A stretch of DNA of 44,361 nt from an uncultured Clostridiaceae bacterium (lineage in GTDB: Bacteria > Bacillota > Clostridia > Lutisporales > Lutisporaceae): positions 19,338-63,698 of the forward strand of contig CAZMPR010000001.1 in NCBI GenBank assembly GCA_964568265.1, read 5' to 3'. Shown here one piece after another: positions 2 through 15,930 of this stretch. The notes under the pieces are model-generated. The model did not search any database and had not been told where the DNA came from. It was given only the letters and a program-made list of their open reading frames with translations. Both the position numbers and the translations under genes were made by a program. Each line of letters begins with the position of its first letter. The stretch's first letter is position 1.

Positions 2-256
2 AAAATTGATAACCTATGTCATATCTCACATGCAGTAAAAATAAAGAGTAATGTTCTAATAGCAGCAAATGCAAATATAGCTGGAAGGACACAAGTTGGC
101 AGCAATACATGGGTAGGACCTAATGTAATGATTTCTAATGGACTAATAATAAATGAGGATTGCCATATAGGGTTAGGTTCAGTAGTTGTTGCGAACCTGT
201 CTAAAGGAATGAAAGTATTTGGCAATCCAGCAAGAATATATGATAAAAAGAAATAA
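2..256 (+). CDS. LpxD-like hexapeptide-repeat N-acyltransferase, C-terminal fragment (5' end upstream of window)
   Basis: The frame is open from the window edge to TAA 254-256. Its translation ([84 protein letters not shown]) aligns position-for-position with the C-terminus of the 7656-8570 product ([12 protein letters not shown]...[14 protein letters not shown]). It is absent from the ORF track because it has no start codon. Confidence 0.8.
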   Translation, partial: KIDNLCHISHAVKIKSNVLIAANANIAGRTQVGSNTWVGPNVMISNGLIINEDCHIGLGSVVVANLSKGMKVFGNPARIYDKKK

Positions 257-275
257 AGAAGCAGGAGGTATAAAA

Positions 276-506
276 ATGAATGAAATAGAATTTCTTTCAA
301 ACATTGCAGAAATATTAGAAGTTGATGTTGAAGAAATAAATATGGAAACTGATTTTAGAAAAGATATTTCGTATTGGGATTCCTTAAAAGGATATTCGCT
401 TATTGTTATGTTAGATGACGAATATGAGACAAGCATGGAAGTGGAAGAATTCTTAAAAGCACAAACAGTAAAAGATTTATACCAATATGTAATAAAAGAC
501 AAATAG
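276..506 (+). CDS. acyl carrier protein-like, W-D-S-L class
   Basis: 77 aa. ATG 276 lies 7 nt after AGGAGG (263-268), so the 219 start in the ORF track is probably an upstream extension. YWDSLKGYSLIVMLDDEY resembles a carrier-protein Ser site and is paralogous to EWNSMTSLSLIVLADEEF in the 9434-9652 product. Confidence 0.7.
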   Translation: MNEIEFLSNIAEILEVDVEEINMETDFRKDISYWDSLKGYSLIVMLDDEYETSMEVEEFLKAQTVKDLYQYVIKDK

Positions 507-515
507 GAGTATAAA

Positions 516-1574
516 ATGAATATATCAAATATATCAGGAATAAAAATTGATGGCATCTATGCATGTATACCTAATGCAGAAATAGATAATAGAAATGCAG
601 GAAAAGAACTGTTCGGTAAAAGTATTGAAGATTTAATAAAATCAACAGGAATAGAAAAAAGGAGAATCTGTTCAAAAGATACCACCGGATTAGATTTATC
701 TATAAAAGCAGCAAAAAGTTTGTTTATGGCTGATGATATAAATCCTATGGAAATCGGTGGGGTTGTATATGTTACTTTTACACCGGATAATTTAATGCCT
801 AACAACTCTACCTATGCACAAAGCGAACTAAAGCTACCGAATAATATACCGGCTTTCGATATCAACCTTGCTTGCTCGGGATATCCATATGGACTATGGA
901 TATCAGCAATGATGGCAAAAAACTTAAATAAAAAGATTTTACTATTAGATGGAGACAAGCAAAGTCATATAACATCACCCTATGACAAAGGGACAGCACT
1001 TCTCTTTTCGGATGCAGGAAGTGCTACTATACTTTCGCCTGATAATACCGAAAGCCAATGGCAGTTTGTATTCGAAACTATAGGATCAAAAAGAGAAGTT
1101 TTATACATAGAAGATGGGGGAGCTAAAAAACCTATAACAAATGATAGTTATTTATATAAAACCTATAACGATGGAAATAAAAGAAGAAATATTGATATAA
1201 AAATGGATGGGCTTGAAGTATTTAAATTTGTTGCTCAAGGAGTAAAAAAGAATCTGACAGAACTATTAAATAATGCGGATAGGAAACCTGAAGATTTTGA
1301 TTTTTTGATACTACATCAAGCCAATCTATATATGATGAAACAACTATGCAAAAAACTATGCTTTCCATTGGAAAAGATGCCAATAACAGCAGATAAATAT
1401 GGCAACTCCAGCTCATCCACCATACCAGTAGTTATGGCATCAGAACTGCAAAAGCCTGTACAGGAAAAGGAACTTAATCTTCTGATGTCTGGATTTGGTG
1501 CAGGTTTATCTATAGGCTCAGCAATAATAGAATTGAAAAAAGGCACAACATTAGGGGTAGTTGAATATGAATAA
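516..1574 (+). CDS. 3-oxoacyl-ACP synthase III (FabH-like KAS III), cassette A
   Basis: 352 aa with the contexts of a FabH-type Cys-His-Asn triad: DINLACSGYPYGL, ILHQANLYMM and YGNSSSSTIP. A GGAG ribosome-binding site lies upstream of the ATG. Confidence 0.85.
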   Translation: MNISNISGIKIDGIYACIPNAEIDNRNAGKELFGKSIEDLIKSTGIEKRRICSKDTTGLDLSIKAAKSLFMADDINPMEIGGVVYVTFTPDNLMPNNSTYAQSELKLPNNIPAFDINLACSGYPYGLWISAMMAKNLNKKILLLDGDKQSHITSPYDKGTALLFSDAGSATILSPDNTESQWQFVFETIGSKREVLYIEDGGAKKPITNDSYLYKTYNDGNKRRNIDIKMDGLEVFKFVAQGVKKNLTELLNNADRKPEDFDFLILHQANLYMMKQLCKKLCFPLEKMPITADKYGNSSSSTIPVVMASELQKPVQEKELNLLMSGFGAGLSIGSAIIELKKGTTLGVVEYE

Positions 1575-2313
1575 AAAGATAATAGTTACGGGTGCATCAA
1601 GTGGTATAGGAAAAAGAACTGCACAAATGCTTATGGACGAAGGATACAAAGTAATACTCACGGCAAGAAATAAAGAAAACCTGATGGAAACAATAAAAGA
1701 CTACCCCATCGAATTGTATGAAATAATACCATGGGACTTATCGGACATTGATTCTTTGCCGCAATACGCAAAAGAAGTAAATGAAAAAGCAGGCCCCATA
1801 TCGGGCTTAGTTCACTGTGCAGGTATACAAATTACCGTGCCTTTGCACTTGATAAACAAGAAAAGACTCATAGACATATTCAATATAAATACCTTTGCCG
1901 CAATAAACTTAGTAGGACTGTTTTCTAAAAGGAAATATTATGTAGAAAACAAGGCTTCCTTTATATTGATATCATCAATAGCAGCTCACGAAGGCGCTAA
2001 TGGTAAATCAATATATGCAGCATCAAAAGGTGCTTTGGAAGGATTTTTATACTCTGCTGCCGCAGAATTAATGGACAAAGGTATAAGGATGAATATTATC
2101 GTCCCCGGCATGATAAAAACAAATATGAATGAAGAATTCTTTAAAAACCTAAACAAAGAGCAAAAGGAAAATATAAAAAATAATTATCCGCTAGGATTTG
2201 GTGAAAGTGAAGATATAGCAAATATGATAATGTATCTCTTAAGTAAAAAATCAAAATGGATAACGGGGCAAAAATTTATTATAGATGGAGGACATTTATC
2301 AAGAAAAATATAG
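1567..2313 (+). CDS. short-chain dehydrogenase/reductase (FabG-like ketoreductase)
   Basis: Contains VTGASSGIGKRTA (TGxxxGxG), YAASKGAL (YxxxK) and IVPGMIKT. ATG 1567 overlaps the KAS III stop; TTG 1561 is the alternative start given in the ORF track. Confidence 0.85.
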   Translation: MNKKIIVTGASSGIGKRTAQMLMDEGYKVILTARNKENLMETIKDYPIELYEIIPWDLSDIDSLPQYAKEVNEKAGPISGLVHCAGIQITVPLHLINKKRLIDIFNINTFAAINLVGLFSKRKYYVENKASFILISSIAAHEGANGKSIYAASKGALEGFLYSAAAELMDKGIRMNIIVPGMIKTNMNEEFFKNLNKEQKENIKNNYPLGFGESEDIANMIMYLLSKKSKWITGQKFIIDGGHLSRKI

Positions 2314-2323
2314 GAGGTACCAC

Positions 2324-2629
2324 ATGGAAAATAAAAAAGATAAAATATACGAAATAATAATAGAAATACTAAAAGAATTTGCTGAAGAAAAAGAATTGGA
2401 AGTATTGGAAAAACCGGATAAGTCCACTAATCTATATGGTTCTGACGGTACTTTAGATTCTCTTTCTTTAGTTAGATTGGCAGTAGAACTGGAAGAAGCC
2501 ATAAGCGATGAATTTGGTAAAGACGTATCCATAGTAGACGACAGAGCTATGAGCCAAAAAAGGTCCCCTTTTAAAACTGTTGGAAGCCTAATAGATTACC
2601 TTATGCTTCTTTTAGAGGAGGAAGAATAA
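2324..2629 (+). CDS. acyl carrier protein, canonical DSL class
   Basis: 101 aa. ATG 2324 follows AGGAGG. DGTLDSLSLVRLAVELEE is a canonical phosphopantetheine-attachment motif. The 2285 start in the ORF track overlaps the SDR and lacks a ribosome-binding site. Confidence 0.8.
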   Translation: MENKKDKIYEIIIEILKEFAEEKELEVLEKPDKSTNLYGSDGTLDSLSLVRLAVELEEAISDEFGKDVSIVDDRAMSQKRSPFKTVGSLIDYLMLLLEEEE

Positions 2630-3319
2630 TTGGTTACAATAATCACAGGCACAAGAAAAGGAATTGGAAGGTTTTTGGCTGAATACTATCTTGAAAAAGG
2701 TCATGTAGTAGTAGGATGTAGTAGAACAGAATCGGATTTGGAGCACGATAATTATAATCACTTTATTATGGATGTATCCGATGAAAAGCAAGTAAAAAAC
2801 TTAGTAAAAACAGTATACAAAAAATACGGAAAGATAGATAATTTAATTAACAATGCAGGCATAGCAATGATGAATCATATTATTTTAACATCTGCATCTG
2901 CAGTACAAAGAGTTTTCGATACTAATTACCTTGGAACTTTTATCTTTACAAGGGAAGTTTCGAAGATTATGATGAAAAAAAGTTATGGAAGGATAGTAAA
3001 CTTTTCTACTGTTGCTGTACCTATACACCTTGACGGAGAAGCTGTATATGCATCCTCAAAAGCAGCTATAGTAGAATTAACAAAAATAGCAGCAAAGGAA
3101 TTAGGTAGCTATGGTATAACAGTAAATGCTTTAGGACCTACTCCCATCAAAACAGATCTTATAAAAAATGTACCTGAAGATAAAATAGAAAGACTATTAA
3201 ACTATCAAGCCATAAAAAGGTTTGGCGAATTTGGAGACATTGCAAATATCATAGATTTTTATATAAATGAGAAAAGTAATTTTATTACAGGACAAACAAT
3301 ATATCTTGGAGGACTTTAA
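2630..3319 (+). CDS. short-chain dehydrogenase/reductase
   Basis: A TTG start directly follows the ACP TAA stop. Motifs present: ITGTRKGIGRFLA, YASSKAAI and NALGPTPIKT. Confidence 0.8.
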   Translation: MVTIITGTRKGIGRFLAEYYLEKGHVVVGCSRTESDLEHDNYNHFIMDVSDEKQVKNLVKTVYKKYGKIDNLINNAGIAMMNHIILTSASAVQRVFDTNYLGTFIFTREVSKIMMKKSYGRIVNFSTVAVPIHLDGEAVYASSKAAIVELTKIAAKELGSYGITVNALGPTPIKTDLIKNVPEDKIERLLNYQAIKRFGEFGDIANIIDFYINEKSNFITGQTIYLGGL

Positions 3320-4666
3320 ATGCATTGGTTTATAGAGAATTTTAAAAAATATGAAGACAGAGAAGCAATTGTATATAATGAAAATATCTTTACCTATGGA
3401 ATGCTAATGGAGGAAATAGGAAAAGCAAAAGAGTATATTAAGCAAGAAAAAGTAAGGGAATATGAAGCTGTAGCTATTATCGGAGATTATTCTTTTCAGG
3501 CTATAGCTATGTTCTATGCCCTCGTAGAGAACAAAAATACTATAGTACCAATTACTACGAAGATAGAAAAAGAAATAGAGTCGAGAATATATGAAGGCTA
3601 TGTAGATAAAATAATAAGAATTATAGACAGCAAATATATGATAGAAGAAGCTAAGAATAAAAGGTTGGAGAAACATGATCTTTTTAACATACTAAAAGAA
3701 AGAAAAAGCAGCGGTTTAATCCTTTTTTCTTCAGGCTCAACAGGAAAACCCAAAGCTATGTTAGAAGACTTAGACTTAATACTGTCTAATTATAAAGAAG
3801 GAAAAACCTCCGTTAGAACTTTAGTCTTTTTAATGTTCGATCATATAGGCGGGGTCAATACTATGTTTCATATACTATCTTCTGGTGGATGTATGATAAT
3901 ACCACCATCAAGAAACGCAGAAGATGTAATGAAAATTATTGAAAAATTTAAGGTAGAAATACTACCGACATCTCCAACATTTTTAAACCTTTTGCTTATA
4001 TCAGAAGCATACAAAAATAAAGATCTAAGCTCATTAAAAATTATATCCTATGGTACAGAACCAATGCCTCCTATCGTACTAAAGAGAATACATGAAATAT
4101 TTCCAAATGTTAAACTTAAACAAACATATGGTCTTAGCGAAGTAGGGATATTAAGCACAAAATCAAAATCCCCTGATTCTTTATATATGAAAATAGGCGG
4201 AGAAAACTTTGACTATAAAATAATAGACAATGAACTATATATAAAATCGGAAATAGCTATGTTAGGCTATCTAAACGCACCTAATCCTTTTACAGATGAT
4301 GGATGGTTTCCTACCGGTGACACAGTAGATGTTGATAATGAAGGATATATAAGGATATTTGGCAGGCTAAAAGAATTTATAAATGTGGGAGGACAAAAGG
4401 TACTGCCCATGGAAGTTGAAGGAGTAATATTAGAAATTGAAGAAGTAAAGGATGCAATGGTAAAACCGGAGAAGAATCCAATAATGGGAGAAATGGTTAT
4501 TGCGGACATATCTTTAAAAGGAATATATGATAAAAAAGAAATAAAAAGAAAGATACTGAACCATTGCAAAGATAGATTGGAAGATTATAAAGTACCTATG
4601 AAGGTTAAATTTGTTGAAGAAGTTGAATTTGGTGAAAGATTTAAAAAAATAAGAAGCAAAGCATAA
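3320..4666 (+). CDS. AMP-dependent synthetase/ligase (short acyl-ACP/CoA ligase type), cassette A
   Basis: 448 aa with adenylate-forming motifs LFSSGSTGKPKA, TYGLSE, GWFPTGD and GRLKEFINVGGQKV, plus a C-terminal Lys-rich tail. The ATG abuts the preceding TAA. Confidence 0.85.
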   Translation: MHWFIENFKKYEDREAIVYNENIFTYGMLMEEIGKAKEYIKQEKVREYEAVAIIGDYSFQAIAMFYALVENKNTIVPITTKIEKEIESRIYEGYVDKIIRIIDSKYMIEEAKNKRLEKHDLFNILKERKSSGLILFSSGSTGKPKAMLEDLDLILSNYKEGKTSVRTLVFLMFDHIGGVNTMFHILSSGGCMIIPPSRNAEDVMKIIEKFKVEILPTSPTFLNLLLISEAYKNKDLSSLKIISYGTEPMPPIVLKRIHEIFPNVKLKQTYGLSEVGILSTKSKSPDSLYMKIGGENFDYKIIDNELYIKSEIAMLGYLNAPNPFTDDGWFPTGDTVDVDNEGYIRIFGRLKEFINVGGQKVLPMEVEGVILEIEEVKDAMVKPEKNPIMGEMVIADISLKGIYDKKEIKRKILNHCKDRLEDYKVPMKVKFVEEVEFGERFKKIRSKA

Positions 4667-4685
4667 AAAACAGGTTGGTGAATAT

Positions 4686-5564
4686 ATGGACAAAGTAGGA
4701 CTCCTATTCCCCGGTCAAGGCTCTCAATATATTGGTATGGGAATAGACTTATATAAAGAAATACCAAAAGCAAAAAAGCTTATGGATAATGCTAATGAAA
4801 TACTTGGATTTGATATAAAATCTATAATATTTCATGGCCAGGAAGAAGAAATAAAAGATACAAAAATAGCTCAGCCTGCAATATTTATAGTATCTGCAAT
4901 GTATTTTGAAAAGTTTAAACAAATGGATAAGAACTATGAAATAGTTGCAGGTCATAGTCTTGGAGAGTACACTGCCCTATACGCTGCAGGTGTTATAACT
5001 TTTGAAGACGGGCTAAACCTAGTCCGAAAGAGGGGCTTGGCAATGAGTGAGATGGACTCATTAGGCACTATGTATGCAATAATGGGAATTGGTATAAAAG
5101 AGATAGAAAATCAATTAATAGGCTTGGGGGATAAAGTAGTAATAGCAAATATTAATTCAAAAAGTCAGATAGTAATATCGGGCTATAGTGACGAAATATT
5201 AGAAGTAGCTGATGCCTTATCCAAAATAGAAGGCTCAACGATAAAACAGCTAAATGTAAGTGGTGCTTTTCATAGCCCTTTAATGGGACAAGTGGAAAGT
5301 ATTATGGGCAAGGAAATAGACCAAGTAAATATGGCGACACCAAGAGTCGAAGTAATACCGAATGTTTTAGGTTATGGCACTAAGGATATAGATGCCATTA
5401 AAGAATCTTTAAAAAGACAAGTTGTAGGTAAGGTTAATTGGCTTGATACAATTTTATATATGAAGAACAAGGGTATAGAAAAACTATATGAAGTGGGACC
5501 GGGCGATGTGCTTACAAAGCTGAATAAAACAATTACATTTAGACCTAAGTGTATGGGGTTTTGA
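4686..5564 (+). CDS. fabD: malonyl CoA-ACP transacylase, copy 1
   Basis: 292 aa with FPGQGSQYIGMG, the active-site GHSLGEYTALYAAG, and VSGAFHSPLM. Confidence 0.9.
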   Translation: MDKVGLLFPGQGSQYIGMGIDLYKEIPKAKKLMDNANEILGFDIKSIIFHGQEEEIKDTKIAQPAIFIVSAMYFEKFKQMDKNYEIVAGHSLGEYTALYAAGVITFEDGLNLVRKRGLAMSEMDSLGTMYAIMGIGIKEIENQLIGLGDKVVIANINSKSQIVISGYSDEILEVADALSKIEGSTIKQLNVSGAFHSPLMGQVESIMGKEIDQVNMATPRVEVIPNVLGYGTKDIDAIKESLKRQVVGKVNWLDTILYMKNKGIEKLYEVGPGDVLTKLNKTITFRPKCMGF

Positions 5565-5578
5565 TAGGGGGAAATATA

Positions 5579-6910
5579 TTGGAAAATCATAAATACACGA
5601 AAGAAAACCTTCTAAGAAAAATCAAAGAAAAATCAGCCATAGTAGCAGTAATCGGACTTGGCTATGTAGGTTTGCCTCTTGCAGTGGAAAAAGCAAAGGC
5701 TGGCTATAAGACCATCGGCTTTGATATCCAAGAATCAAAAGTAAAAGCAATAAACGAAGGACATAACTATATAGGTGATGTGGTAGATACAGAACTTGAA
5801 GACTTAGTAAAAAGAGGTTTGCTATCCGCAACAAATGATTTTTCCATAGTAAAAGATGCAGATTTTATAGCAATCTGTGTACCTACACCTTTAGACGAAT
5901 ACCAACAGCCGGATATCAGCTATGTAAAAAATTCGGCTATAGAAATAGCTAAGTATTTAAAAGAAGGGGCTATAGTAGTGTTGGAAAGCACTACCTATCC
6001 CGGCACCACGGAGGAGCTGCTATTGCCTATATTGGAAGAAGGTTCGAGCTTAAAATGCGGACAAGACTTCTACTTAGCTTTTTCACCGGAGAGGGTAGAC
6101 CCGGGCAACCTTATATATAAGACTAAGAACACTCCAAAAGTAGTAGGAGGCGTAGATAAAGACTCAACAGAGATTGCCGCGGCTATGTATAGAAATGTTT
6201 TGAATTCAGATATATTTGAAGCCTCATCTCCAAAAGTAGCAGAAATGGAAAAAATCTTGGAAAACACCTATAGAAATATAAATATTGGCTTGGCAAATGA
6301 AATGGCTATAATATGCCACAAGATGGGCATAAATGTATGGGAAGTAATAGATGCTGCAAAGACGAAACCATACGGCTTTCAAGCCTTTTATCCCGGCCCC
6401 GGATTGGGAGGGCACTGTATACCCTTAGATCCTTACTATTTATCCTGGAAAGCAAGGGAATACAGCTATCATACGCAACTGATAGAAACCTCCGGGATAA
6501 TAAATGATAGTATGCCGGCTTATGTAATAGAAAGAGCAAGTAATATTTTAAATAGATTTAAAAAGCCGCTGAACGGTTCCAAGATACTTATCTTAGGAGT
6601 AGCCTATAAACAAGATATAGATGACTATAGAGAAAGTCCGGCACTTAAAGTAATAGAATTATTTGAAAAAGAAGGAGCCATAGTTGATTACTACGACCCA
6701 CAAATAAAAGAATATACATATAAGGGCAAAGCTAAAGAAGGAAAGGAAAAATTGACAAAAGAATTGCTGAAGGAAGCAGATTTAGTGGTAATAACAACAA
6801 ACCACAGCACCGTTGATTATAGCTTTGTCCAAAAGCATTCTCAATATATATTCGACACTAAAAATGCCATGAAAGCTATCGAATATAGAGAGAATATAGA
6901 ATTGCTGTAG
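5579..6910 (+). CDS. nucleotide-sugar 6-dehydrogenase (UDP-GlcNAc/UDP-ManNAc dehydrogenase family, WbpA/WecC-like), copy 1
   Basis: Contains the Rossmann motif VIGLGYVGLPLA and the catalytic-Cys context GLGGHCIPLDPYY. TTG 5579 lies 7 nt after AGGGGGA (5565-5571). The GTG 5549 start in the ORF track has no ribosome-binding site and overlaps fabD. Confidence 0.85.
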   Translation: MENHKYTKENLLRKIKEKSAIVAVIGLGYVGLPLAVEKAKAGYKTIGFDIQESKVKAINEGHNYIGDVVDTELEDLVKRGLLSATNDFSIVKDADFIAICVPTPLDEYQQPDISYVKNSAIEIAKYLKEGAIVVLESTTYPGTTEELLLPILEEGSSLKCGQDFYLAFSPERVDPGNLIYKTKNTPKVVGGVDKDSTEIAAAMYRNVLNSDIFEASSPKVAEMEKILENTYRNINIGLANEMAIICHKMGINVWEVIDAAKTKPYGFQAFYPGPGLGGHCIPLDPYYLSWKAREYSYHTQLIETSGIINDSMPAYVIERASNILNRFKKPLNGSKILILGVAYKQDIDDYRESPALKVIELFEKEGAIVDYYDPQIKEYTYKGKAKEGKEKLTKELLKEADLVVITTNHSTVDYSFVQKHSQYIFDTKNAMKAIEYRENIELL

Positions 6911-6921: not shown

Positions 6922-7659
6922 ATGGATTTTACTTATGATGCATATATAGAATTAATAAAGATTTTGAAATCGAACAGCTATAAATTTGCAAATTATAAGA
7001 ATTATAAAGAAATATCAAGGCTGGTAATATTTAGACATGATATCGATAATTCCATAGAAAAAGCATTAAAGATAGCAAGGATAGAAAATGAAAACAATGT
7101 GAAATCAACGTACTTTGTCCTATTATCAACTAACTTTTATAATATTTTCTCTAAAGAATCAAATGAAATGCTAACTGAAATAATGGAATTAGGTCATGAA
7201 ATTGGCTTGCATTTTGATGAAAAACGATATGAAATAAAAGATGAAGTAGATTTAGAAAAATATATAGAATATGAAAAATCTATATTGGGAAAAGCAGTAG
7301 GCACAAAAGTATGCACCGTCTCAATGCATAGACCATCAAAATGGATTTTGGAAAATGATATACAGTTTAAAAATGTCATAAATACATATTCAAAAACATT
7401 TTTCAATGAATTCAAATATCTATCCGACTCAAGGATGCATTGGAGAGAAGATGTATTAGGGATAATAAATAGCCGTAAATATGATAAATTGCATATCTTA
7501 ACTCATCCTTTTTGGTATGATGAAGGCGAAGGAGACATAAAAGAAAGAGTAAGCAAATATATAAATAATGCTAATAAAGAAAGATATAATTATATGAAAG
7601 ACAATATAAGAGATATTGAGGAAATTATGAAGACGGAGACGGAGGTGGGTATTGAATGA
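6922..7659 (+). CDS. polysaccharide deacetylase-like (CE4/NodB-type) protein
   Basis: 245 aa. [10 protein letters not shown] and [11 protein letters not shown] resemble the metal/catalytic motifs of NodB-homology deacetylases. The assignment rests on motifs only. Confidence 0.5.
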
Positions 7660-8570
7660 AACTTCCCATAAGTGATATACTGAACTTCCTTGATAAAGCA
7701 AATATTGGGTATGACTTTGCCGGAAGAAAAGATATAATAATATCAAAATATACTTCAATAAAAAATGTAGAAAGAAACACAATAACTTGGATAAAAAACA
7801 AAAAATTTTACGATGAAAGTTCTATAAAAAAACAAAGCGAAATTCTATTAGTTGTTAAAGACGATATAGAAATTGATGCAAATGTATTAGGAAATATAGG
7901 GATTATAAAAAGCGACAATCCAAAAGAAACATTTTTTTCAATATTGAACAATTTCTTTTCAAAAGATAAAGCCAAATCCTTTGTATCAAACACTGCCGTA
8001 GTTAATACTAAAAATATCGGAGAAAATGTTTATATAGGACACCACACTTTTATAGATGATGAAGTTGAAATAGGAAATAATGTGATAATTAAAAATAATG
8101 TATCAATAGAAGGCAAAGTGAGAATAGGAGACAACACAATAATTCATTCAGGAGTGGTTATTGGTACAGATGGATTTGGATATTATAAAAATGAAGATGG
8201 ATTAAACTTGAAGGTTCCTCATTACGGGGGGGTTGTGATAGGCTCTGATGTAGAAATAGGAGCAAACACTTGTATAGACAGGGGGACGTTGGATGATACG
8301 ATAATAGGGGATAATGTGAAGATAGATAATTTGTGTCAGATAGCTCATAATGTTATGATAAAAAGAAATACTTTAATAGCTGGGAACACGAGTGTAGCAG
8401 GGAGTACAATTATAGGGGCAAACACTTGGATAGGCTCATCATCAATATCTAATGGATTAGTTATTGGAGAGAATTGTTATATAGTAATGGGATCTGTGGT
8501 GATTTCTAATGTGCGCGATAATAAGAAAGTGTTTGGAAATCCTGCAAGAGTGTATGATGGAAATGAATAA
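7656..8570 (+). CDS. LpxD-like N-acyltransferase (N-terminal LpxD-type domain + left-handed beta-helix)
   Basis: 304 aa. Hexapeptide repeats run from about residue 105 ([38 protein letters not shown]...). The catalytic-His context is [24 protein letters not shown]. The ATGA start overlaps the upstream stop. Confidence 0.8.
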
Positions 8571-8647: not shown

Positions 8648-9406
8648 GTGATTAACCCAATGGATTTAACCAGCAAACATATATTGATAACCGGAGCATC
8701 ATCCGGAATAGGCAAGGCAACCGCTATTCACCTAAGCAAATTAGGAGCTAAATTATCCCTAATCGCAAGGAATGAGGTAAGGCTTAAAGATACTCTAAAT
8801 CAATTGGGCGGAGAAGGACATTTTATTTATCTTGCTGATTTAAAAGAAATACAAAAAATTGAAAGTTTAGTAGGCGAAATAGTGAATGGCAGTGGTCCAC
8901 TTGATGGATTAGCACATTGTGCAGGTATAGCTACTATGAGGCCGTTAAGTATGACAAATTCTGAATTTTTGCATGATATGATGCTGATAAACTTTTATTC
9001 ATTTGTTGAATTAATAAGATGTGCATCTAAGAAAAATAGGTTTAATAAAGGTGCAAGCTTTATTGGAATGTCGTCTATAGGCAGTAAATATGGAGATAAA
9101 TCAAAAACAGGCTATTGTGCATCAAAAGCCGCTATAGATTCAGCCGTTAGATGTATGGCAAAAGAATTGGCATATAAAGAGATACGAGTAAATACAGTAG
9201 TTGCAGGGCTAATAAAAACGGATATGTACGATAGCTTTATTGAGACAGCAGGAGAAGAATCTTTAGCATTGAATGTATCGACCAATCAGTATTTTGGGAT
9301 AGGAAAACCGATTGATGTTGCTAATGCTATAGCCTATTTACTAAGTGATGCTTCAAAATTTATAACAGGGACAGGCTTCGTAGTAGATGGTGGCTTTTTA
9401 TCATAA
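8648..9406 (+). CDS. short-chain dehydrogenase/reductase
   Basis: The GTG start follows AAGGTGGTG. Motifs present: ITGASSGIGKATA, YCASKAAI and VVAGLIKT. Confidence 0.85.
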   Translation: MINPMDLTSKHILITGASSGIGKATAIHLSKLGAKLSLIARNEVRLKDTLNQLGGEGHFIYLADLKEIQKIESLVGEIVNGSGPLDGLAHCAGIATMRPLSMTNSEFLHDMMLINFYSFVELIRCASKKNRFNKGASFIGMSSIGSKYGDKSKTGYCASKAAIDSAVRCMAKELAYKEIRVNTVVAGLIKTDMYDSFIETAGEESLALNVSTNQYFGIGKPIDVANAIAYLLSDASKFITGTGFVVDGGFLS

Positions 9407-9433
9407 AAAATATAATACTTGGAGGTAATAATA

Positions 9434-9652: not shown

Positions 9653-9757
9653 GAATTGCATAAAGATACTATTTTAAAAAATAATAGAATCTTATTAAAA
9701 CGACTATTACATCTTATCTATGGAGAATATATGTTACTTTAACAGGTGTGTAAAAAG

Positions 9758-10276
9758 ATGATAAAACTATTTTTTTCTGGCTTTGCCAACCCCAAACAAT
9801 ATTCAAAAGAGTTCGTAACTAATATACTTGCAAGGGAGCTATGCTTAGATAAAAGAAAAATTATTATAGATACTACTCAATATGGAAAACCATATATAAA
9901 GAATCCTAAAGGTTTCTACTTTAACATATCACACACAAAAGATATTATAGTATGCGGATTATCAAATAGTCCTATAGGAGTAGATATCGAAAAGATCAAG
10001 CCTATAAAGAAAAAGATAGTAGAAAATTTTTTCAACCTGCATGAAAAAGTGTATGTTTACTCTGATTTAGAAAAAGAAAATGAGAGATTCACTGAAATCT
10101 GGACAAGGAAAGAAGCATATGTTAAATGGATTGGAAAAGGTATGGAAGTAGGATTTGATACATTTGATGTAATAAATGATATAAGAATAAAAACAATGCA
10201 TATAGATAACTATATTTTAAGTGTTTGCACTGATAAAATTAGTGATAAAAGTATTGTAGCATATATCATTGCATAA
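9758..10276 (+). CDS. 4'-phosphopantetheinyl transferase, Sfp type (short)
   Basis: Contains QYGKPY, FNISHT, GVDIEKI and WTRKEAYVKWIGKG. The start could be ATG 9758 or GTG 9746. Confidence 0.8.
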   Translation: MIKLFFSGFANPKQYSKEFVTNILARELCLDKRKIIIDTTQYGKPYIKNPKGFYFNISHTKDIIVCGLSNSPIGVDIEKIKPIKKKIVENFFNLHEKVYVYSDLEKENERFTEIWTRKEAYVKWIGKGMEVGFDTFDVINDIRIKTMHIDNYILSVCTDKISDKSIVAYIIA

Positions 10277-10338
10277 CTTTTAAGAAAGATTATTTAAGCG
10301 AATAATAAATGAAAGAATCATAAAATGTGGGAGGCTTT

Positions 10339-11400
10339 ATGGCTATATCAAAATTTAACAATGTAAAAATCAAAGGGATATGTTGCGGTGTTCCAAATAA
10401 CCCTATTAAGGTAACAGATTTAGGCAAGGATAATTTTAATGAAAATGATATAAAGAAGGTCTGCGATCTTATTGGAGTAGAAACATTATACTATGCCAAA
10501 ACTGGACAAACAGCCTCAGACATAGGCTATATGGCAGCAGAAAAACTGCTTAGTGACTTAAATTGGGATAGGGAAAGTATTGATGGCTTAATATTTGTTT
10601 CGCAGACACCGGACTACATATTGCCTGCTACATCTTGTATATTACAGGACAGATTAAAATTGTCCAAAGATTGTGTAGCACTTGATATTAATCTTGGATG
10701 TTCAGCTTATATTTACGGATTATGGTTGGCTAATCAGTTTATTTCAACCAAATCGTGTAAAAGAGTATTATTAATTGTAGGAGACATTATTTCGGGGTAT
10801 ATATCACCTAAAGATAAGTCTACTGCTTTAATTTTTGGGGATGGTGTATCTGCTACCTGTTTAGAATACTGCGAAGATGCAAGACCGACTACTTTTGTTT
10901 TGAAAACAGACGGTTCGGGAGCCAATAGTCTAATAATACCGGCAGGGTCAAACAGAAAGCCTATTAGCGATAATACAAAGATTTTATATAAAGATGAAGA
11001 TGGGAATGTAAGGAATGAAGAAAATCTATATATGAATGGTATGGATATCTTTGGGTTTGCTATACGAGAGGTACCAAAGATAATAAATGAGGTAATAGCT
11101 GAACATGGATGGACGCGAGAAACCGTTGATAAATTGTTATTACATCAAGCCAATAACTATATGCTAAAATTTATAGCCCAGAAATCTAAAATTTCTATTG
11201 ATAAAGTGCCTTTAAATATTGATGTATTTGGAAATACGGGAGGTGCTTCGATTCCATTTTTAATATGCGATAAAATTGCTGATGAAGCAAAAGGTAATGT
11301 CCTAAATGTAGTTATATCGGGCTTTGGTGTGGGGCTTTCATGGGGTGCTGTAGCTATGACTTTATCTGATTTATATTGTTCAAATATTATATATATATAA
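10339..11400 (+). CDS. 3-oxoacyl-ACP synthase III (FabH-like KAS III), cassette B
   Basis: ATG 10339 follows GGGAGG. The triad contexts are DINLGCSAYIYGL, LLHQANNYML and FGNTGGASIP. It is strongly diverged from the cassette A enzyme. Confidence 0.85.
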   Translation: MAISKFNNVKIKGICCGVPNNPIKVTDLGKDNFNENDIKKVCDLIGVETLYYAKTGQTASDIGYMAAEKLLSDLNWDRESIDGLIFVSQTPDYILPATSCILQDRLKLSKDCVALDINLGCSAYIYGLWLANQFISTKSCKRVLLIVGDIISGYISPKDKSTALIFGDGVSATCLEYCEDARPTTFVLKTDGSGANSLIIPAGSNRKPISDNTKILYKDEDGNVRNEENLYMNGMDIFGFAIREVPKIINEVIAEHGWTRETVDKLLLHQANNYMLKFIAQKSKISIDKVPLNIDVFGNTGGASIPFLICDKIADEAKGNVLNVVISGFGVGLSWGAVAMTLSDLYCSNIIYI

Positions 11401-11438
11401 GTGCAGAAACAAATAATCAATCTTATTTGGAGGTTAAA

Positions 11439-11663
11439 ATGATAAATAAATTGCTGGAAATAATAAATGGTATCTTAGAAAACACAAATAGGGAGACTAT
11501 ACAAGAATTAAGTGAGGAAATGTCATTAAGAAAAGACTTAGATTTCGATTCTTTAGACTTGGCGGTATTGACTGTAAATATCGAAAGCGAGTTTGATATC
11601 GATATTTTTGAAGAAGGTAATATAGATACTATAGATGAGATTATTAAGAGGCTGCAAAAATGA
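11439..11663 (+). CDS. acyl carrier protein, canonical DSL class
   Basis: 74 aa. ATG 11439 follows GGAGG. The motif is DLDFDSLDLAVLTVNIE. The 11376 start in the ORF track overlaps the KAS III 3' end. Confidence 0.8.
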   Translation: MINKLLEIINGILENTNRETIQELSEEMSLRKDLDFDSLDLAVLTVNIESEFDIDIFEEGNIDTIDEIIKRLQK

Positions 11664-12886
11664 AAACTTTTTTAGTAGACACTTTTAGAAATGAATATTT
11701 GTCTTATGAAGATTTAGTGCCTGAATTAAATGATTTTGAGCTTAGGAAATTTATTTATTATGAAAACCCAAAAGATGTTTTCTTAGCTTTGATTAAGTCT
11801 TTAGCAATTGGTGAAGAGGTTGTTTTGCTTGATGGTGATTTAAGTGATGAAGAAATAGAAACCCAAGGACTAACAATTAAACAAGTAATGAGCGGAGAAA
11901 TCAATAAGGAAATCGAATTCAAAGATATAAGTGACATATTTGAGAAAATCGAAAAAAATAAAATGAAGTGGAGTGTAACTATATTTACTTCCGGGACTAC
12001 AGGTAAACCAAAGAAAGTAAAGCATAGTTTTAACAGTGCTTCAAGAGCGGTGAGAATGGGAGAAAAGTTTCAAAATGATAATTGGCTTTTTACCTATAAC
12101 CCGACTCACTTTGCAGGTCTACAGGTTTTTTTGCAAGCTTTTTTAAATAGAAATACCATAATATTAGCCAATGAACCAAGTAAATATGATATAGGCTATT
12201 TATTGGAAGCTTATAGAGTTACTCATATTTCGGCAACACCGACATTTTACAGATTTGTTTTGCCTACTTTAAAATCAGAATACAAAAAGGTTGACAGAAT
12301 TACCTTGGGTGGAGAAAAGGCTGATGAAAGCATTATAGCTCTTTTGAAACAGAAATTCCCGAAAGCAAAAACTACCAATGTATATGCTTCCACTGAAGCC
12401 GGCAATTTATTTGCTTCTGAAGGTGAGTATTTTAAAGTGGATCAAAGTATTTCTGATATGATTAGAGTGGAAGACGGAGAATTATTGATTAATAAAAAAC
12501 TATTAGGAGATTTCAATTTAGAAGATAATGATGAATGGTATAAAACCGGTGATTTAGTTGAGCTTTCAGAAGGAAAGATAAGATTTATACAAAGAAAAAG
12601 TGACTTTATCAATATAGGAGGCTACAAAGTAAACCCGGCGGAAGTAGAAGAAGAAATTATGCAAATGGACAATATTATTGATGTACATGTTTATGGAGAA
12701 GACAATAAAATGTTGGGAAAGATACTTATGGCAGATGTTGTTTTAGAAAAAGCCGAAGAAAATATAAACAAGAGAATATTTAATCATTTAAACAATAGGA
12801 TGCAAAAATGGAAGATACCAAGGATTATTAATATTAAAAATGAAATAGACAAAACAAGAACAGGGAAAAAGGTGAGGAATAAATGA
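11660..12886 (+). CDS. AMP-dependent synthetase/ligase, cassette B
   Basis: 408 aa with IFTSGTTGKPKKV, YASTEAG, WYKTGD and QRKSDFINIGGYKV. The ATGA start overlaps the ACP stop. Confidence 0.85.
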   Translation: MKTFLVDTFRNEYLSYEDLVPELNDFELRKFIYYENPKDVFLALIKSLAIGEEVVLLDGDLSDEEIETQGLTIKQVMSGEINKEIEFKDISDIFEKIEKNKMKWSVTIFTSGTTGKPKKVKHSFNSASRAVRMGEKFQNDNWLFTYNPTHFAGLQVFLQAFLNRNTIILANEPSKYDIGYLLEAYRVTHISATPTFYRFVLPTLKSEYKKVDRITLGGEKADESIIALLKQKFPKAKTTNVYASTEAGNLFASEGEYFKVDQSISDMIRVEDGELLINKKLLGDFNLEDNDEWYKTGDLVELSEGKIRFIQRKSDFINIGGYKVNPAEVEEEIMQMDNIIDVHVYGEDNKMLGKILMADVVLEKAEENINKRIFNHLNNRMQKWKIPRIINIKNEIDKTRTGKKVRNK

Positions 12887-13599
12887 AAACAGTTTTAGTT
12901 ACCGGCACTTCGGGTGAGTTAGGCTGTACAATATCTAATGTACTATTAAATGAAAATTATAAAGTTATAGGCATTAGCAGGAGCAATAATAAAAATATAG
13001 AAAATTTAGAATCAAACAAAAACTATGTTCATATAAATTTTGATTTAAGTGAACCTGATAATATAAAGGATTTAATTATCGGTCTTCAAAAGTCAGGGGA
13101 AAAGTTTTATGGCTTAGTAAATAATGCAGCATATGCTTACGATGATATAATAACAAATGCGAATACTGAAAGGTTAAGAAAGTCTTATAATGTAAATGTT
13201 ATATCTCCTATTATTTTAACTAAATATATAATAAGAAATATGTTGTTAAGTAAAGAGTATGGCAGCATAGTCCATATTTCTTCGGTATCGGCACATACAG
13301 GGTACAAAGGTCTCAGTATGTATGCATCAACCAAGGGGGCTATGGAGGCATTCTCAAAAAACCTTGCAAGAGAATGGGGAGAATTAGGTATTCGTTCAAA
13401 CTGTGTCGTGCCCGGATTTATGGAAACCAATATGAGTAAGTCATTGTCAAAAGAACAAAAAGACAGAATATATAAAAGAACTTCAATGAAAAAAGAAACA
13501 AATATTATATCGGTCGCAGAGACAGTAGCTTTCTTGTTATCTGAAAAATCAAATTCAATAACAGGGCAGAATTTACATGTGGATAATGGAACTATTTAG
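12883..13599 (+). CDS. short-chain dehydrogenase/reductase
   Basis: Contains VTGTSGELGCTIS, YASTKGAM and VVPGFMET. The ATGA start overlaps the ligase stop. Confidence 0.8.
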   Translation: MKTVLVTGTSGELGCTISNVLLNENYKVIGISRSNNKNIENLESNKNYVHINFDLSEPDNIKDLIIGLQKSGEKFYGLVNNAAYAYDDIITNANTERLRKSYNVNVISPIILTKYIIRNMLLSKEYGSIVHISSVSAHTGYKGLSMYASTKGAMEAFSKNLAREWGELGIRSNCVVPGFMETNMSKSLSKEQKDRIYKRTSMKKETNIISVAETVAFLLSEKSNSITGQNLHVDNGTI

Positions 13600-13705
13600 A
13601 TTAGATAACTTAAATATTAGTAATTGAAAATTGTGTTTTTTCTGTTTTTCTAATAATCGGATATATTCTGTTACATGTTTAAATCTCAAAGTGGAGGTAG
13701 TTGAT

Positions 13706-14584
13706 TTGGAGAATATAGGACTGCTTTTTCCTGGACAAGGTTCTCAATATGTCGGCATGGGAAAAGAATTATACAATGAAATACCCGAAGCAAAAAAGTT
13801 GATAGACAAAGCTAATGATATATTGGGCTTTGATATAAGGAAAATCATATTTGAAGGCTCTGATGAAGACATACTGCCTACACAAATAGCCCAACCGTCA
13901 ATATATATTGTATCTGCCATGTATTATGAAAAATTTAAACAAATTGATAAACCATTTGAAATAGTTGCTGGCCATAGTCTTGGCGAATATACTGCTTTAT
14001 ACGCAGCAGGAGTATTTACCTTTGAAGACGGGCTAAACTTAGTTCGTAAAAGAGGCTTGGCAATGGGTGAGATGAACTCATTAGGTTCTATGTATGCAAT
14101 AATGGGAATTGATATAGAAGAGATAGAAAAAGAACTAATAGGCTTGGAAAATAAAGTAGTAATAGCAAATATTAATTCAAAAAGTCAAATAGTTATATCA
14201 GGGTATAACGATGAAATATCAAAAGTAGCTGATGCCTTATCCAAAATAGAAGGCTCAACGATAAAACAGCTAAATGTAAGTGGTGCTTTTCATAGCCCTT
14301 TAATGGGACAAGTTAAGGAGATAATGAAAGAAGAAATAGATAAAATACAAATGAAAGAACCTATTGTAGAAATAATACCGAATGTTTTAAGTTATGCCAC
14401 TAAGGATATAAGTATTATTAAAGAATCACTAAAAAGACAAGTTGTAGGTAAGGTCAATTGGCTTAATACAATTTTATATATGAAGAACATGGGTATAGAA
14501 AGACTATATGAAGTTGGGCCGGGTGATGTGCTTGCAAAGCTGAATAAAACGATTACATTTAGACCTAAATGTATGGGGTTTTGA
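13706..14584 (+). CDS. fabD: malonyl CoA-ACP transacylase, copy 2
   Basis: TTG 13706 follows GGAGG (13693-13697) and sits exactly 9020 bp from the copy 1 start. Motifs present: FPGQGSQYVGMG, GHSLGEYTALYAAG and VSGAFHSPLM. The 13631 start in the ORF track adds a non-homologous leader. Confidence 0.9.
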   Translation: MENIGLLFPGQGSQYVGMGKELYNEIPEAKKLIDKANDILGFDIRKIIFEGSDEDILPTQIAQPSIYIVSAMYYEKFKQIDKPFEIVAGHSLGEYTALYAAGVFTFEDGLNLVRKRGLAMGEMNSLGSMYAIMGIDIEEIEKELIGLENKVVIANINSKSQIVISGYNDEISKVADALSKIEGSTIKQLNVSGAFHSPLMGQVKEIMKEEIDKIQMKEPIVEIIPNVLSYATKDISIIKESLKRQVVGKVNWLNTILYMKNMGIERLYEVGPGDVLAKLNKTITFRPKCMGF

Positions 14585-14598
14585 TAGGGGGAAATATA

Positions 14599-15930
14599 TT
14601 GGAAAATCATAAATACACGAAAGAAAACCTTCTAAGAAAAATCAAAGAAAAATCAGCCATAGTAGCAGTAATCGGACTTGGCTATGTAGGTTTGCCTCTT
14701 GCAGTGGAAAAAGCAAAGGCCGGCTATAAAACCATTGGCTTTGACATCCAAGAATCAAAAGTAAAAGCAGTAAACGAAGGGCATAACTATATCGGTGATG
14801 TAGTGAATGAAGAACTTGAAGATTTAGTAAAAAGGGGACTCCTATCCGCGACAAATGACTTTTCCATCGTAAAAGATGCAGATTTTATAGCAATCTGTGT
14901 CCCAACACCTTTAGACGAATACCAACAGCCGGATATCAGCTATGTAAAAAGTTCGGGCATAGAAATAGCCAAGTATTTAAAAAGAGGAACTATAGTAGTG
15001 TTGGAAAGCACCACTTATCCCGGTACTACGGAGGAACTGCTATTACCTATATTAGAAGAAGGTTCGGGTTTAAAATGCGGACAAGACTTCTATTTAGCTT
15101 TTTCACCGGAGAGGGTAGACCCGGGCAATCTAATATACAAGACTAAGAATACTCCAAAAGTAGTAGGAGGCGTAGACAAAGACTCAACAGAGGTTGCCGC
15201 GGCTATGTATAGAAATGTTTTGAATTCAGATATATTTGAAGCCTCATCTCCAAAAGTAGCAGAAATGGAAAAAATCTTGGAAAACACCTATAGAAATATA
15301 AATATTGGCTTGGCAAATGAAATGGCTATAATATGCCACAAGATGGGCATAAATGTATGGGAAGTAATAGATGCTGCAAAGACGAAACCATACGGCTTTC
15401 AAGCCTTTTATCCCGGCCCCGGATTGGGAGGGCACTGTATACCCTTAGATCCTTACTATTTATCCTGGAAAGCAAGGGAATACAGCTATCATACGCAACT
15501 GATAGAAACCTCCGGGATAATAAATGATAGTATGCCGGCTTATGTAATAGAAAGAGCAAGTAATATTTTAAATAGATTTAAAAAGCCGCTGAACGGTTCC
15601 AAGATACTTATCTTAGGAGTAGCCTATAAACAAGATATAGATGACTATAGAGAAAGTCCGGCACTTAAAGTAATAGAATTATTTGAAAAAGAAGGAGCCA
15701 TAGTTGATTACTACGACCCACAAATAAAAGAATATACATATAAGGGCAAAGCTAAAGAAGGAAAGGAAAAATTGACAAAAGAATTACTAAATGAAGCAGA
15801 TTTAGTGGTAATAACAACAAGCCACAGCACCGTTGACTATAACTTTGTCCAAAACCATTCCCAATATATATTCGATGCTAAAAATGCAATGAAAGCTATC
15901 GAATGCAGAGAAAATATAGAACTATTATAA
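14599..15930 (+). CDS. nucleotide-sugar 6-dehydrogenase, copy 2
   Basis: Collinear with copy 1 at a +9020 offset, with only a handful of amino-acid differences. It has the same AGGGGGA-7 nt-TTG start context. Confidence 0.85.
   Translation: MENHKYTKENLLRKIKEKSAIVAVIGLGYVGLPLAVEKAKAGYKTIGFDIQESKVKAVNEGHNYIGDVVNEELEDLVKRGLLSATNDFSIVKDADFIAICVPTPLDEYQQPDISYVKSSGIEIAKYLKRGTIVVLESTTYPGTTEELLLPILEEGSGLKCGQDFYLAFSPERVDPGNLIYKTKNTPKVVGGVDKDSTEVAAAMYRNVLNSDIFEASSPKVAEMEKILENTYRNINIGLANEMAIICHKMGINVWEVIDAAKTKPYGFQAFYPGPGLGGHCIPLDPYYLSWKAREYSYHTQLIETSGIINDSMPAYVIERASNILNRFKKPLNGSKILILGVAYKQDIDDYRESPALKVIELFEKEGAIVDYYDPQIKEYTYKGKAKEGKEKLTKELLNEADLVVITTSHSTVDYNFVQNHSQYIFDAKNAMKAIECRENIELL

Follow-up and report, generated by a model that had tools for sequence, protein, structure and literature searches.

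LpxD-like transferases and private acyl-building gene cassettes in a polysaccharide locus of an uncultured Clostridiaceae bacterium

What use would a polysaccharide locus in a monoderm-type bacterium have for two private sets of genes like those of fatty acid synthesis, each set behind a gene whose product resembles LpxD of lipid A synthesis? The question is raised by a stretch of DNA of 44,361 nucleotides (the window) from an uncultured Clostridiaceae bacterium, positions 19,338 to 63,698 of contig CAZMPR010000001.1 (assembly GCA_964568265.1). The two sets, called here cassettes A and B, and the genes of the two LpxD-like proteins, HexA and HexB, lie in its first 20 kb, whose + strand open reading frames (ORFs) were scanned with Pfam and NCBIfam and are the subject of this analysis. 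The region is the variable heart of a Wzy/flippase-type polysaccharide locus in the metagenome-assembled genome (MAG) of a monoderm-type Bacillota from a bioreactor. The cassettes most likely swap the usual acetyls on a diamino sugar acid for custom hydroxy-acyl groups. The explanation taken as a whole, in which two private acyl cassettes feed LpxD-like enzymes acting on a diamino-uronic acid, has in our estimate a somewhat better than even chance of being correct. An earlier note on this DNA had proposed that the locus decorates amino sugars with two different short 3-hydroxyacyl groups. Its general idea and the link that it drew to the transferases stand, and a glycan locus acting on amino sugars is supported, but the note missed both the deacetylase-like gene X245 and the identity of the sugar pathway.

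What could the cassettes make? Cassette A holds an acyl carrier protein (ACP), a ketoacyl synthase of type III (KAS III), two members of the short-chain dehydrogenase/reductase (SDR) family, a second carrier, a ligase and FabD:

276..506, + strand: ACP_A1, carrier of the W[DN]S[LM] (ACP1) class; PF00550 match, E 2e-9; invariant Ser in an alignment with relatives (A4)
516..1574, + strand: KAS_A, KAS III; ACP_syn_III N- and C-terminal domains; Cys/His/Asn intact; best PDB match 4efi
1561..2313, + strand: SDR_A1, ketoreductase; adh_short/KR match; TGASSGIG (SDR1) class with YxxxK; 40% identical to SDR_B1
2324..2629, + strand: ACP_A2, divergent carrier of the ligase sub-module; 101 amino acids (aa), DSL motif, 10-residue insert
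2630..3319, + strand: SDR_A2, FabG-like reductase; adh_short match, TIGR01830 best; travels with ACP_A2 and LIG_A in genomes G107 and G206
3320..4666, + strand: LIG_A, adenylate-forming ligase; AMP-binding and C-terminal domains; P-loop and TGD present
4686..5564, + strand: FabD_A, malonyl-coenzyme A (CoA):ACP transacylase; TIGR00128 score 275.9 against a cut-off of 260.9; GHSLG

Cassette B has a different order and adds a phosphopantetheinyl transferase (PPTase); identities are to its counterparts in two related loci, a wastewater contig (L095) and a Bacillota MAG (L007):

8648..9406, + strand: SDR_B1, ketoreductase of the SDR1 class; adh_short/KR match; 93% identical in L095, 67% in L007
9434..9652, + strand: ACP_B1, carrier of the ACP1 class (EWNSM); PF00550, E 7e-5; 94% in L095, 63% in L007; alignment A4
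9746..10276, + strand: Sfp-type 4'-phosphopantetheinyl transferase; PF01648; AusB/HetI/AcpT matches
10327..11400, + strand: KAS_B, KAS III; ACP_syn_III N- and C-terminal domains; triad intact; 97% identical in L095
11439..11663, + strand: ACP_B2, DSL carrier of the ligase sub-module; PF00550, E 5e-5; 92% in L095; alignment A3
11660..12886, + strand: LIG_B, short (408 aa) adenylate-forming ligase; AMP-binding and C-terminal domains; TSGTTGKPK, TGD and C-terminal TGK; nearest PDB match MenE
12883..13599, + strand: SDR_B2, reductase of the ligase sub-module; adh_short/KR match; 97% identical in L095
13631..14584, + strand: FabD_B, malonyl-CoA:ACP transacylase; TIGR00128 score 288.3 against a cut-off of 260.9; 80% identical to FabD_A

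The scans bore out the gene list that the earlier note had drawn up for both cassettes, every gene lying at or near its assigned place, and the carrier motifs are as it had read them (YWDSL, EWNSM, LDSLS and FDSLD). Throughout window positions 1-20 kb every ORF is on the + strand, neighbouring genes are separated by short gaps or overlap, and no terminator-like site was found on the + strand in positions 1-20000. Catalytic motifs are intact: GHSLG and AFHS in both FabD proteins, YxxxK in the SDRs, and the P-loop and TGD in both ligases. KAS_A, KAS_B and KAS_C (the last from cassette C, a smaller set upstream of the window) all have DINLxCS, HQAN and GN[ST]. KAS_A and KAS_B match PF08545 and PF08541 and score under the cut-off for housekeeping FabH (221.8 and 224.3 vs 249). 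The possibility that the KAS III proteins are Cys-less acyltransferases of the DpsC/CerJ type was rejected on account of their intact Cys-His-Asn triad.

Three of the four carriers match PF00550 above its cut-off. The exception, ACP_A2 (2324-2629), has no Pfam match and weak NCBIfam matches to DltC, AsbD and ACP (E about 1e-4). Its gene adjoins a ligase gene also in loci L089-L092 and L096-L098, and a D-S pair is conserved in alignment A3. Because the profile of this family matches only ACPs in the PDB (E 3.7e-5), and because a 101-aa gene is kept at this place in four other contigs, 2324-2629 is the likely gene within the ORF 2285-2629.

Among the ORFs there is no domain of FabZ/FabA, enoyl reductase or KAS I/II, in agreement with the earlier note, which had concluded that processing should stop at the 3-keto or 3-hydroxy stage after one condensation. 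Stopping at 3-hydroxy is one possibility among others, since each cassette has a second SDR. The two carrier classes that it recognized are real and can be assigned to two separable sub-modules. Orthologues of LIG_A, sought in 400 genomes of the phylum, were found in four. In two of them the trio of ACP2, SDR2 and ligase genes is followed by a GNAT gene, in NeuB or guanosine diphosphate (GDP)-mannose dehydratase loci, and the other two keep only the ACP2-ligase pair. The Bacillota MAG L007 has two KAS III genes, SDR1, ACP1, FabD and PPTase directly before an X245-HexB pair, with no ligase. Since the trio occurs alone elsewhere and the ligase part is missing from L007, each cassette is a fusion of two portable sub-modules. 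One comprises the ligase, the DSL carrier and an SDR, and the other KAS III, the W[DN]S[LM] carrier, an SDR and FabD.

LIG_A is presumed to load an acid on ACP_A2. Its nearest PDB matches are FadD13 (the best), MenE and DhbE, at E 1e-25 to 1e-20. The solved relatives of both ligases are mainly acyl- or aryl-acid ligases (FadD13, MenE), while amino-acid activators (DltA and the adenylation domains of nonribosomal peptide synthetases) score weaker. Homology does not reveal what the ligases prefer, all solved relatives being remote (E 1e-25 or weaker) and differing in specificity. The SDR that travels with the ligase and its carrier points to a loaded acid with a keto or hydroxyl group, and the starter is probably oxidised or reduced on the carrier.

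On the route proposed here, the ligase would charge ACP2, the carrier of the DSL type, with a small oxygenated carboxylic acid, which the adjoining SDR would reduce or oxidise there. FabD would charge ACP1, the carrier of the W[DN]S[LM] type, with malonyl, and KAS III would condense the acid bound to ACP2 with malonyl-ACP1. The second SDR would then reduce the new 3-keto group, giving a polyhydroxy-acyl-ACP of short chain. With a C4 keto acid as starter the acyl would be 3,5-dihydroxyhexanoyl, a group known to occur on amino sugars. The single Sfp-type PPTase would activate all carriers. Separate carriers for starter and extender, as the earlier note had suggested, are plausible on this assignment.

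Perhaps, instead, the sub-modules make two separate acyl groups, the KAS part producing plain 3-hydroxybutanoyl-ACP from acetyl-CoA for the LpxD-like enzyme while the trio produces a different acyl, destined for some other acceptor, be it a hydroxyl, a second sugar in the repeat unit or the PglD-type transferase encoded upstream. The trio is, after all, self-contained elsewhere with its own GNAT, both L007 and the upstream cassette C hold the KAS part without a ligase, and 3-hydroxybutanoyl is the commonest unusual N-acyl group (PMC9676051). We consider this division of labour unlikely, because neither cassette holds a further transferase, such as a GNAT, that could use the acyl-ACP2, because the trio genes stand between those for KAS and FabD, and because other samples preserve the entire gene order, with identities of 86-97%.

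To what would such acyl groups be transferred? Each cassette is preceded by a gene for an LpxD-like protein and followed by one for a nucleoside diphosphate (NDP)-sugar 6-dehydrogenase, just as the earlier note had described, and further genes for a sugar nucleotide pathway, here based on uridine diphosphate (UDP), lie beyond:

2..256, + strand: C-terminal part of HexA, the first LpxD-like N-acyltransferase; Hexapep and LpxD/NeuD matches
5549..6910, + strand: DH_A, UDP-N-acetyl-hexosamine (HexNAc) 6-dehydrogenase of the WbpA/Cap5O/WecC class; three UDPG_MGDP_dh domains; best PDB match 4r16, with Cap5O
6922..7659, + strand: X245, CE4/NodB-fold protein of 245 aa; stop overlaps the start of HexB; Foldseek matches to CE4
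7656..8570, + strand: HexB, the second LpxD-like N-acyltransferase; NF002060 score 227.6 (cut-off 207), TIGR01853 score 215.8 (cut-off 242.5)
14569..15930, + strand: DH_B, second dehydrogenase gene; 96% aa identity with DH_A
15903..17003, + strand: non-hydrolysing 2-epimerase of UDP-N-acetylglucosamine (GlcNAc) type (WecB/WbpI class); PF02350; TIGR00236 score 292.5 against a cut-off of 210
18444..19439, + strand: 3-dehydrogenase of the GFO/IDH/MocA family (WlbA/WbpB class); Pfam match; best PDB matches 3q2k and 3q2i, E 1e-57

The two PDB entries closest to the last protein are ones that we take to be WlbA structures. Upstream of HexA, on the same contig (L001), lie genes for a GT4 glycosyltransferase and a DegT protein, whose best PDB matches include the C3 aminotransferases QdtB, DesV and WbpE. 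The locus thus encodes together a dehydrogenase, a GFO-type 3-dehydrogenase and a C3 aminotransferase, the combination that marks the diamino-uronic acid pathway. Homology and conserved gene order show a WbpA/WbpB/WbpE/WbpI set, which is predicted to make UDP-2,3-diamino-2,3-dideoxy-gluc/mannuronic acid. The short acetyltransferase of WbpD type that usually accompanies such a set is missing from this locus.

The full HexA gene (G000:C1:18667-19593 in L001) begins within the end of the gene for the C3-type DegT aminotransferase and reads 308 aa through a scaffold gap of ten N. The run of N (G000:C1:19328-19337) lies inside HexA just before window base 1, and the residues that precede it (GERGSLLSTGQRQ) look unlike the family, which makes the join of the two scaffold parts provisional. 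HexA and HexB are 37.5% identical over their full length, and HexA has the motif HISHAV. HexB passes the NCBIfam model of an LpxD subfamily (NF002060) and fails the equivalog model (TIGR01853). E. coli LpxD (3eh0) matches it at E 5e-41, with the catalytic His of the E. coli enzyme (His239) aligned to the motif QIAHNV. Its AlphaFold (AF2) model (a monomer, the acyl groove lying between subunits; predicted template-modelling score, pTM, 0.56) has an N-terminal alpha/beta domain, then a left-handed beta-helix. The former, residues 1-100, is of the uridine-binding type, and TIGR01853 aligns from residue 18. The top 22 Foldseek matches of the model are all LpxD.

HexA and HexB are homologues of LpxD, but not LpxD itself. 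Relatives occur in Bacillus-like, Planococcus and Lachnospiraceae genomes. The idea of a diderm host with true lipid A was considered; LpxC did not turn up in the 71%-complete genome. A limited literature search turned up no paper on LpxD-like enzymes in Gram-positive glycan loci.

X245, the gene joined to HexB, is presumed to encode a 2-N-deacetylase of sugar nucleotides. The protein falls below the Pfam cut-off for PF01522 (E 0.0043, 17.4 bits vs 23.1). None of its 2686 homologues has a Pfam domain on record, a few are annotated as polysaccharide deacetylases, and the family is unnamed. In 24 sequences R38-H39-D40-x-D42, H92, H97-F-D99-E100, H136-R-P138, D169 and H195 are invariant. These His/Asp motifs resemble motifs 1, 2, 3 and 5 of CE4 in the same order, with a different spacing (H-x4-H). 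The AF2 model (predicted local distance difference test, pLDDT, 86.7) is a deformed (beta/alpha) barrel, and its 32 Foldseek matches at E<=0.001 are all CE4 deacetylases (probability 1.0, template-modelling scores 0.4-0.58). The coupling of the X245 and HexB genes mirrors the order LpxC/LpxD. Nothing relevant to the X245 family, or to WbqC paired with deacetylases, was found in a limited literature search.

A survey of X245, with one genome taken per species, gave 72 loci, nearly all in Bacillota. Genes for a 6-dehydrogenase, a WlbA-like GFO protein and a DegT protein lie beside X245 in nearly all of them, typically in the order dehydrogenase, X245, LpxD-like, GFO, short hexapeptide transferase, DegT. 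The matches to the GFO protein are 37-46% identical in most of the 72 loci and up to 90% in the nearest relative, and DH_A is 59-82% identical to its counterpart beside X245 in about 50 related loci. X245 has no LpxD-like gene behind it in about a third of the loci, and where HexB is absent the inspected loci have at that place a gene for a WbqC-like (PF08889), ATP-grasp, GNAT or FemAB-like protein (L023, L029, L033, L038 and L045, at about 10720-12020; L034:10723-11787; L024:9197-10126). Such a pattern, seen in 12 inspected loci, of a constant deacetylase-like gene with a variable transferase or ligase gene behind it would be expected if X245 frees an amine that is later derivatised again, and the variable gene suggests alternative modifications at the same amine.

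The conserved core consists, in order, of genes for GT4, the C3 aminotransferase, the putative N3 acyltransferase, the UDP-HexNAc 6-dehydrogenase, the CE4-like deacetylase, the putative N2 acyltransferase and the WlbA-like 3-dehydrogenase. In a metagenome contig (L005) DegT, HexA-like, dehydrogenase, X245, HexB and GFO genes are contiguous, with no cassette. By comparison with such loci the window is the conserved core with cassette A placed after HexA, and with cassette B, the dehydrogenase copy, the epimerase and an ATPase gene placed after HexB. Both acyltransferase slots are filled by LpxD-like enzymes, and a private acyl-building cassette is inserted behind each.

Do the transferases belong with the cassettes? 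Two relatives speak to this. In L095 the dehydrogenase gene, X245 (89%) and HexB (95%) are followed by a complete cassette B, its genes 87-97% identical and in unchanged order. In L093, which has no cassette, GT4 (87%), X245 (87%) and GFO (90%) are about as similar, whereas HexB is only 53% identical, and a short WbpD-like gene stands in HexA's place. The transferase allele thus travels with its cassette. Cassette A recurs in L096 at 86-94% identity, and in L097 an X245-Hex pair is directly followed by a set of the cassette A type (68-82% identity). An LpxD-like gene and a cassette are thus adjacent in three independent architectures: the window, L097 and L007. The claim of the earlier note that the cassettes are wired to the LpxD-like transferases is backed by the split in the HexB allele and by the arrangement in L097.

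A variant of cassette A (L099:9001-15419) has ACP, KAS III, SDR and small carrier genes, then, in place of the SDR and ligase, genes for a 554-aa protein without Pfam match and a metallo-beta-lactamase (MBL)-fold protein, then FabD. In the same locus a 249-aa protein of no known family is encoded after the DegT gene, at the position expected of a transferase.

It may be that the LpxD-like enzymes draw their acyl groups from general metabolism, as acyl-CoA or housekeeping acyl-ACP, and that the cassettes serve some other job, on another sugar or a small lipid. The helices by which LpxD recognizes ACP are missing, about 70 related loci have the X245/dehydrogenase core, with or without HexB, and no cassette, and the locus is a mosaic with inserted genes of a defence type. 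We hold this to be distinctly improbable, for it leaves unexplained why the HexB allele should follow cassette B between similar flanks (95% vs 53%), why an LpxD-like gene should be found next to a cassette in the three architectures just mentioned, and what else would use the acyl groups, no other transferase being encoded within or directly beside either cassette.

If the cassettes do supply the LpxD-like enzymes, the presence of a CE4-like deacetylase explains why there should be two: one for acylation of N3, the other for exchange of the acetyl at N2. HexA would transfer the acyl made by cassette A to the new 3-amino group; X245 would strip the 2-N-acetyl, and HexB would add the acyl made by cassette B at N2. 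The sequence would repeat the order GnnA/GnnB, LpxA, LpxC, LpxD of lipid A synthesis, on a uronic acid and with short chains. In lipid A of the GlcN3N (2,3-diamino sugar) type the order is to aminate, acylate, deacetylate and acylate. HexA and HexB are, moreover, true LpxD homologues with the catalytic His, and the best solved match of LIG_A is a long-chain ligase, FadD13, so one might suppose that the ligases activate medium- or long-chain fatty acids, that a single KAS III extension with reduction turns these into R-3-hydroxy fatty acyl-ACPs, and that the product is a lipid-A-like, di-N-acylated diamino sugar, a glycolipid anchor. This is very improbable, given that no LpxC was found in the (incomplete) genome, that the genes sit inside a Wzy/MurJ-type repeat-unit locus, that the SDR partner of the ligase implies a small oxygenated acid, that elsewhere the trio works with GNATs, in loci for nonulosonic acid and GDP-mannose dehydratase, and that the ligase similarities are weak (E 1e-25) and non-specific.

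Several points weigh against the explanation that two private cassettes feed LpxD-like enzymes on a diamino-uronic acid. The families of X245 and HexB are without any member of known chemistry. The nearest solved relatives of the dehydrogenase are UDP-N-acetylmannosamine (ManNAc) dehydrogenases, so a branch towards the corresponding uronic acid (ManNAcA) is possible. The linkage of HexA to DegT rests on scaffolding across the ten-N gap, although the same order is found in L005. The C-terminal helical extension of LpxD binds ACP (PDB 4ihf-4ihh), and such helices are absent from HexA and HexB, to judge by the profiles and, for HexB, the model: HexB ends at position 303 of 325 in TIGR01853 and 313 of 345 in NF002060, and the model has beta strands and no helix after residue 100. 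Most HexB relatives are encoded in loci without a private ACP and so must draw on a different donor, be it acyl-CoA or a housekeeping acyl-ACP, and the same could hold for HexB. For these two reasons the dependence of the LpxD-like proteins on ACP, with a cassette-made acyl-ACP as donor, is something we infer. A predicted complex of the HexB trimer with ACP_B1 scored 0.04 (mark 0.32), which weighs neither way. Step order, starter acid, chain length and stereochemistry are likewise proposals.

The two cassettes were described in the earlier note as no recent tandem copy. For the KAS, ligase, SDR and ACP genes that is right: a recent tandem duplication of whole cassettes was rejected for them (26-40% identity), and the paralogues are as strongly diverged as the note had said (KAS 34%, ligases 26%, SDR 28-40% identity). 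It does not hold for FabD and the dehydrogenase, where such a duplication was accepted. These two genes form a direct repeat of 2.2 kb at an offset of 9020, whose nucleotide identity climbs from 59% to 100% along its length, full identity being reached over 6201-6600 vs 15221-15620. At the protein level FabD is 80% and the dehydrogenase 96% identical. The segment arose by recent duplication or gene conversion. A wastewater metagenome contig (run X8, 659 nt, depth 4.3) joins window position 14641 to 16978 with 39 other letters between. This relative, without the second dehydrogenase copy and the epimerase, fits the repeat as a recent rearrangement.

The locus holds further genes. An AAA_15/AAA_21 ATPase gene (window 17096-18376) lies between the epimerase and the WlbA-like gene. 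It is found downstream of cassette B in contigs of two other metagenomes (X2 and X8) as well, and so occurs beyond this genome. Between the GT4 and Wzy genes (window 20545-24084) are encoded a 576-aa protein with a domain of the copper-amine-oxidase N-terminal type (cell-wall associated) and a 544-aa protein of no known family.

Upstream of the window (L001:2683-10800 on G000:C1) lies the third, smaller cassette, C. The set comprises genes for a LegC/PseC-like aminotransferase, a PglC-like initiating transferase, a formyltransferase-like protein, a PIG-L deacetylase, a PglD-like transferase, an MBL-fold protein, KAS III, SDR, FabD and ACP. Its FabD is split by a frameshift, its SDR is of the same TGASSGIG class as SDR_B1, and its ACP is 59% identical to ACP_B1. 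The set probably acylates a sugar of the bacillosamine type. Inserted in mid-locus (L001:11423-15666) are genes for a 598-aa protein with a reverse-transcriptase domain and two unknown proteins (411 and 334 aa), which have a defence-type look. The contig opens (L001:104-1224) with genes for a MarR-type helix-turn-helix protein and a NusG/KOW paralogue, a pair that could be a specialised antiterminator of a long operon.

How does the locus compare with known systems? Lipid A synthesis by LpxC/LpxD, with GnnA/GnnB and LpxA, has the same 3-oxidation and amination by GFO and DegT proteins, N3 acylation, 2-N-deacetylation and N2 acylation by an enzyme of LpxD fold. Unlike it, the locus has a deacetylase of CE4 rather than LpxC fold and transferases without ACP helices that fall below the LpxD equivalog cut-off, its sugar is a uronic acid in a Wzy-type locus, and its donors are probably short, private acyl-ACPs. 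The WbpA/WbpB/WbpE/WbpD/WbpI pathway of Pseudomonas, WlbA-D of Bordetella and gna/dgaABC of Acinetobacter lead to UDP-2,3-diacetamido-2,3-dideoxy-gluc/mannuronic acid and have homologous dehydrogenase, 3-dehydrogenase, aminotransferase and 2-epimerase. Cassette-less relatives of the locus keep the short WbpD-like acetyltransferase of the Wbp pathway, but here the WbpD slot holds an LpxD-like enzyme followed by cassette A, and an extra pair of deacetylase and LpxD-like enzyme would re-acylate the second position.

Private ACP, ligase and reductase genes for an unusual N-acyl group are found in the glycan locus rfbK-rfbO of V. cholerae O1, a system that uses reductases of the LuxC/LuxE type or iron-containing alcohol dehydrogenases. 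To our knowledge it has neither a KAS III extension step nor an LpxD-like transferase. Flagellin glycosylation islands of enterobacteria likewise carry ACP, ligase and FabG genes (PMC4875605). In both, an ACP, a ligase and reductases prepare an N-acyl on a carrier, from which it goes to an amino sugar, and this matches the sub-module of ligase, ACP2 and SDR2. Unlike the present locus, the flagellin islands have reductases of the LuxC/LuxE or iron-containing alcohol dehydrogenase type and no LpxD-like transferases (PMC4875605).

A further known system is that of the wfpC-wfpG genes of Flavobacterium psychrophilum (ACP, two KAS, ketoreductase and a PglD-like protein), to which a 3,5-dihydroxyhexanoyl group on an amino sugar has been attributed (PMC6519341). 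They too provide a glycan locus with a private ACP, KAS and ketoreductase, with no dehydratase or enoyl reductase, and in both cases a short polyhydroxy acyl is predicted to be moved by a hexapeptide-repeat transferase onto a UDP-amino-sugar. Both systems are known from genes, by prediction only. The Flavobacterium set has two KAS, one ketoreductase and one ACP, no ligase or FabD, a PglD-like transferase, and the 4-amine of bacillosamine as acceptor. Here there are one KAS III, two SDRs, two carrier classes, a ligase, FabD and PPTase, with LpxD-like transferases, a diamino-uronic acid and two cassettes per locus. Annotation has already placed private genes like those of fatty acid synthesis in glycan loci. 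The most useful new points here are the hub formed by the CE4-like deacetylase and the swapping of transferases together with their cassettes.

Unusual N-acyl groups on amino sugars define serotypes, phage receptors and immune epitopes, and few of the enzymes behind their synthesis and attachment are known. The locus offers a parts list: two portable sub-modules that can be mixed, a transferase family that swaps with its cassette, and the very common X245 family, found in many gut Lachnospiraceae and in Bacilli, which would account for the exchange of the 2-N-acetyl of a uronic acid for another group. If the reading is true, these would be enzymes for glyco-engineering of N-acyl groups, and thousands of genes called 'LpxD' or 'hypothetical' in Gram-positive genomes could be better annotated. 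A wider view may be taken, more tentatively and with rather less than an even chance of being right, in which the CE4-fold family (about 2,700 members) and an exchangeable amine-modifying enzyme (truncated LpxD-like, WbqC-like, ATP-grasp, GNAT or FemAB-like) form a general hub in monoderm Bacillota for editing the N-acyl groups of UDP-amino-uronic acids. In this genome the hub would be fitted with two plug-in factories for acyl-ACP, so that both amines carry custom polyhydroxy-acyl chains. If the hub is real, Gram-positive bacteria would have a short-chain version of the LpxA/LpxC/LpxD logic, and this would point to a common origin of LpxD and the N-acyltransferases of glycans.

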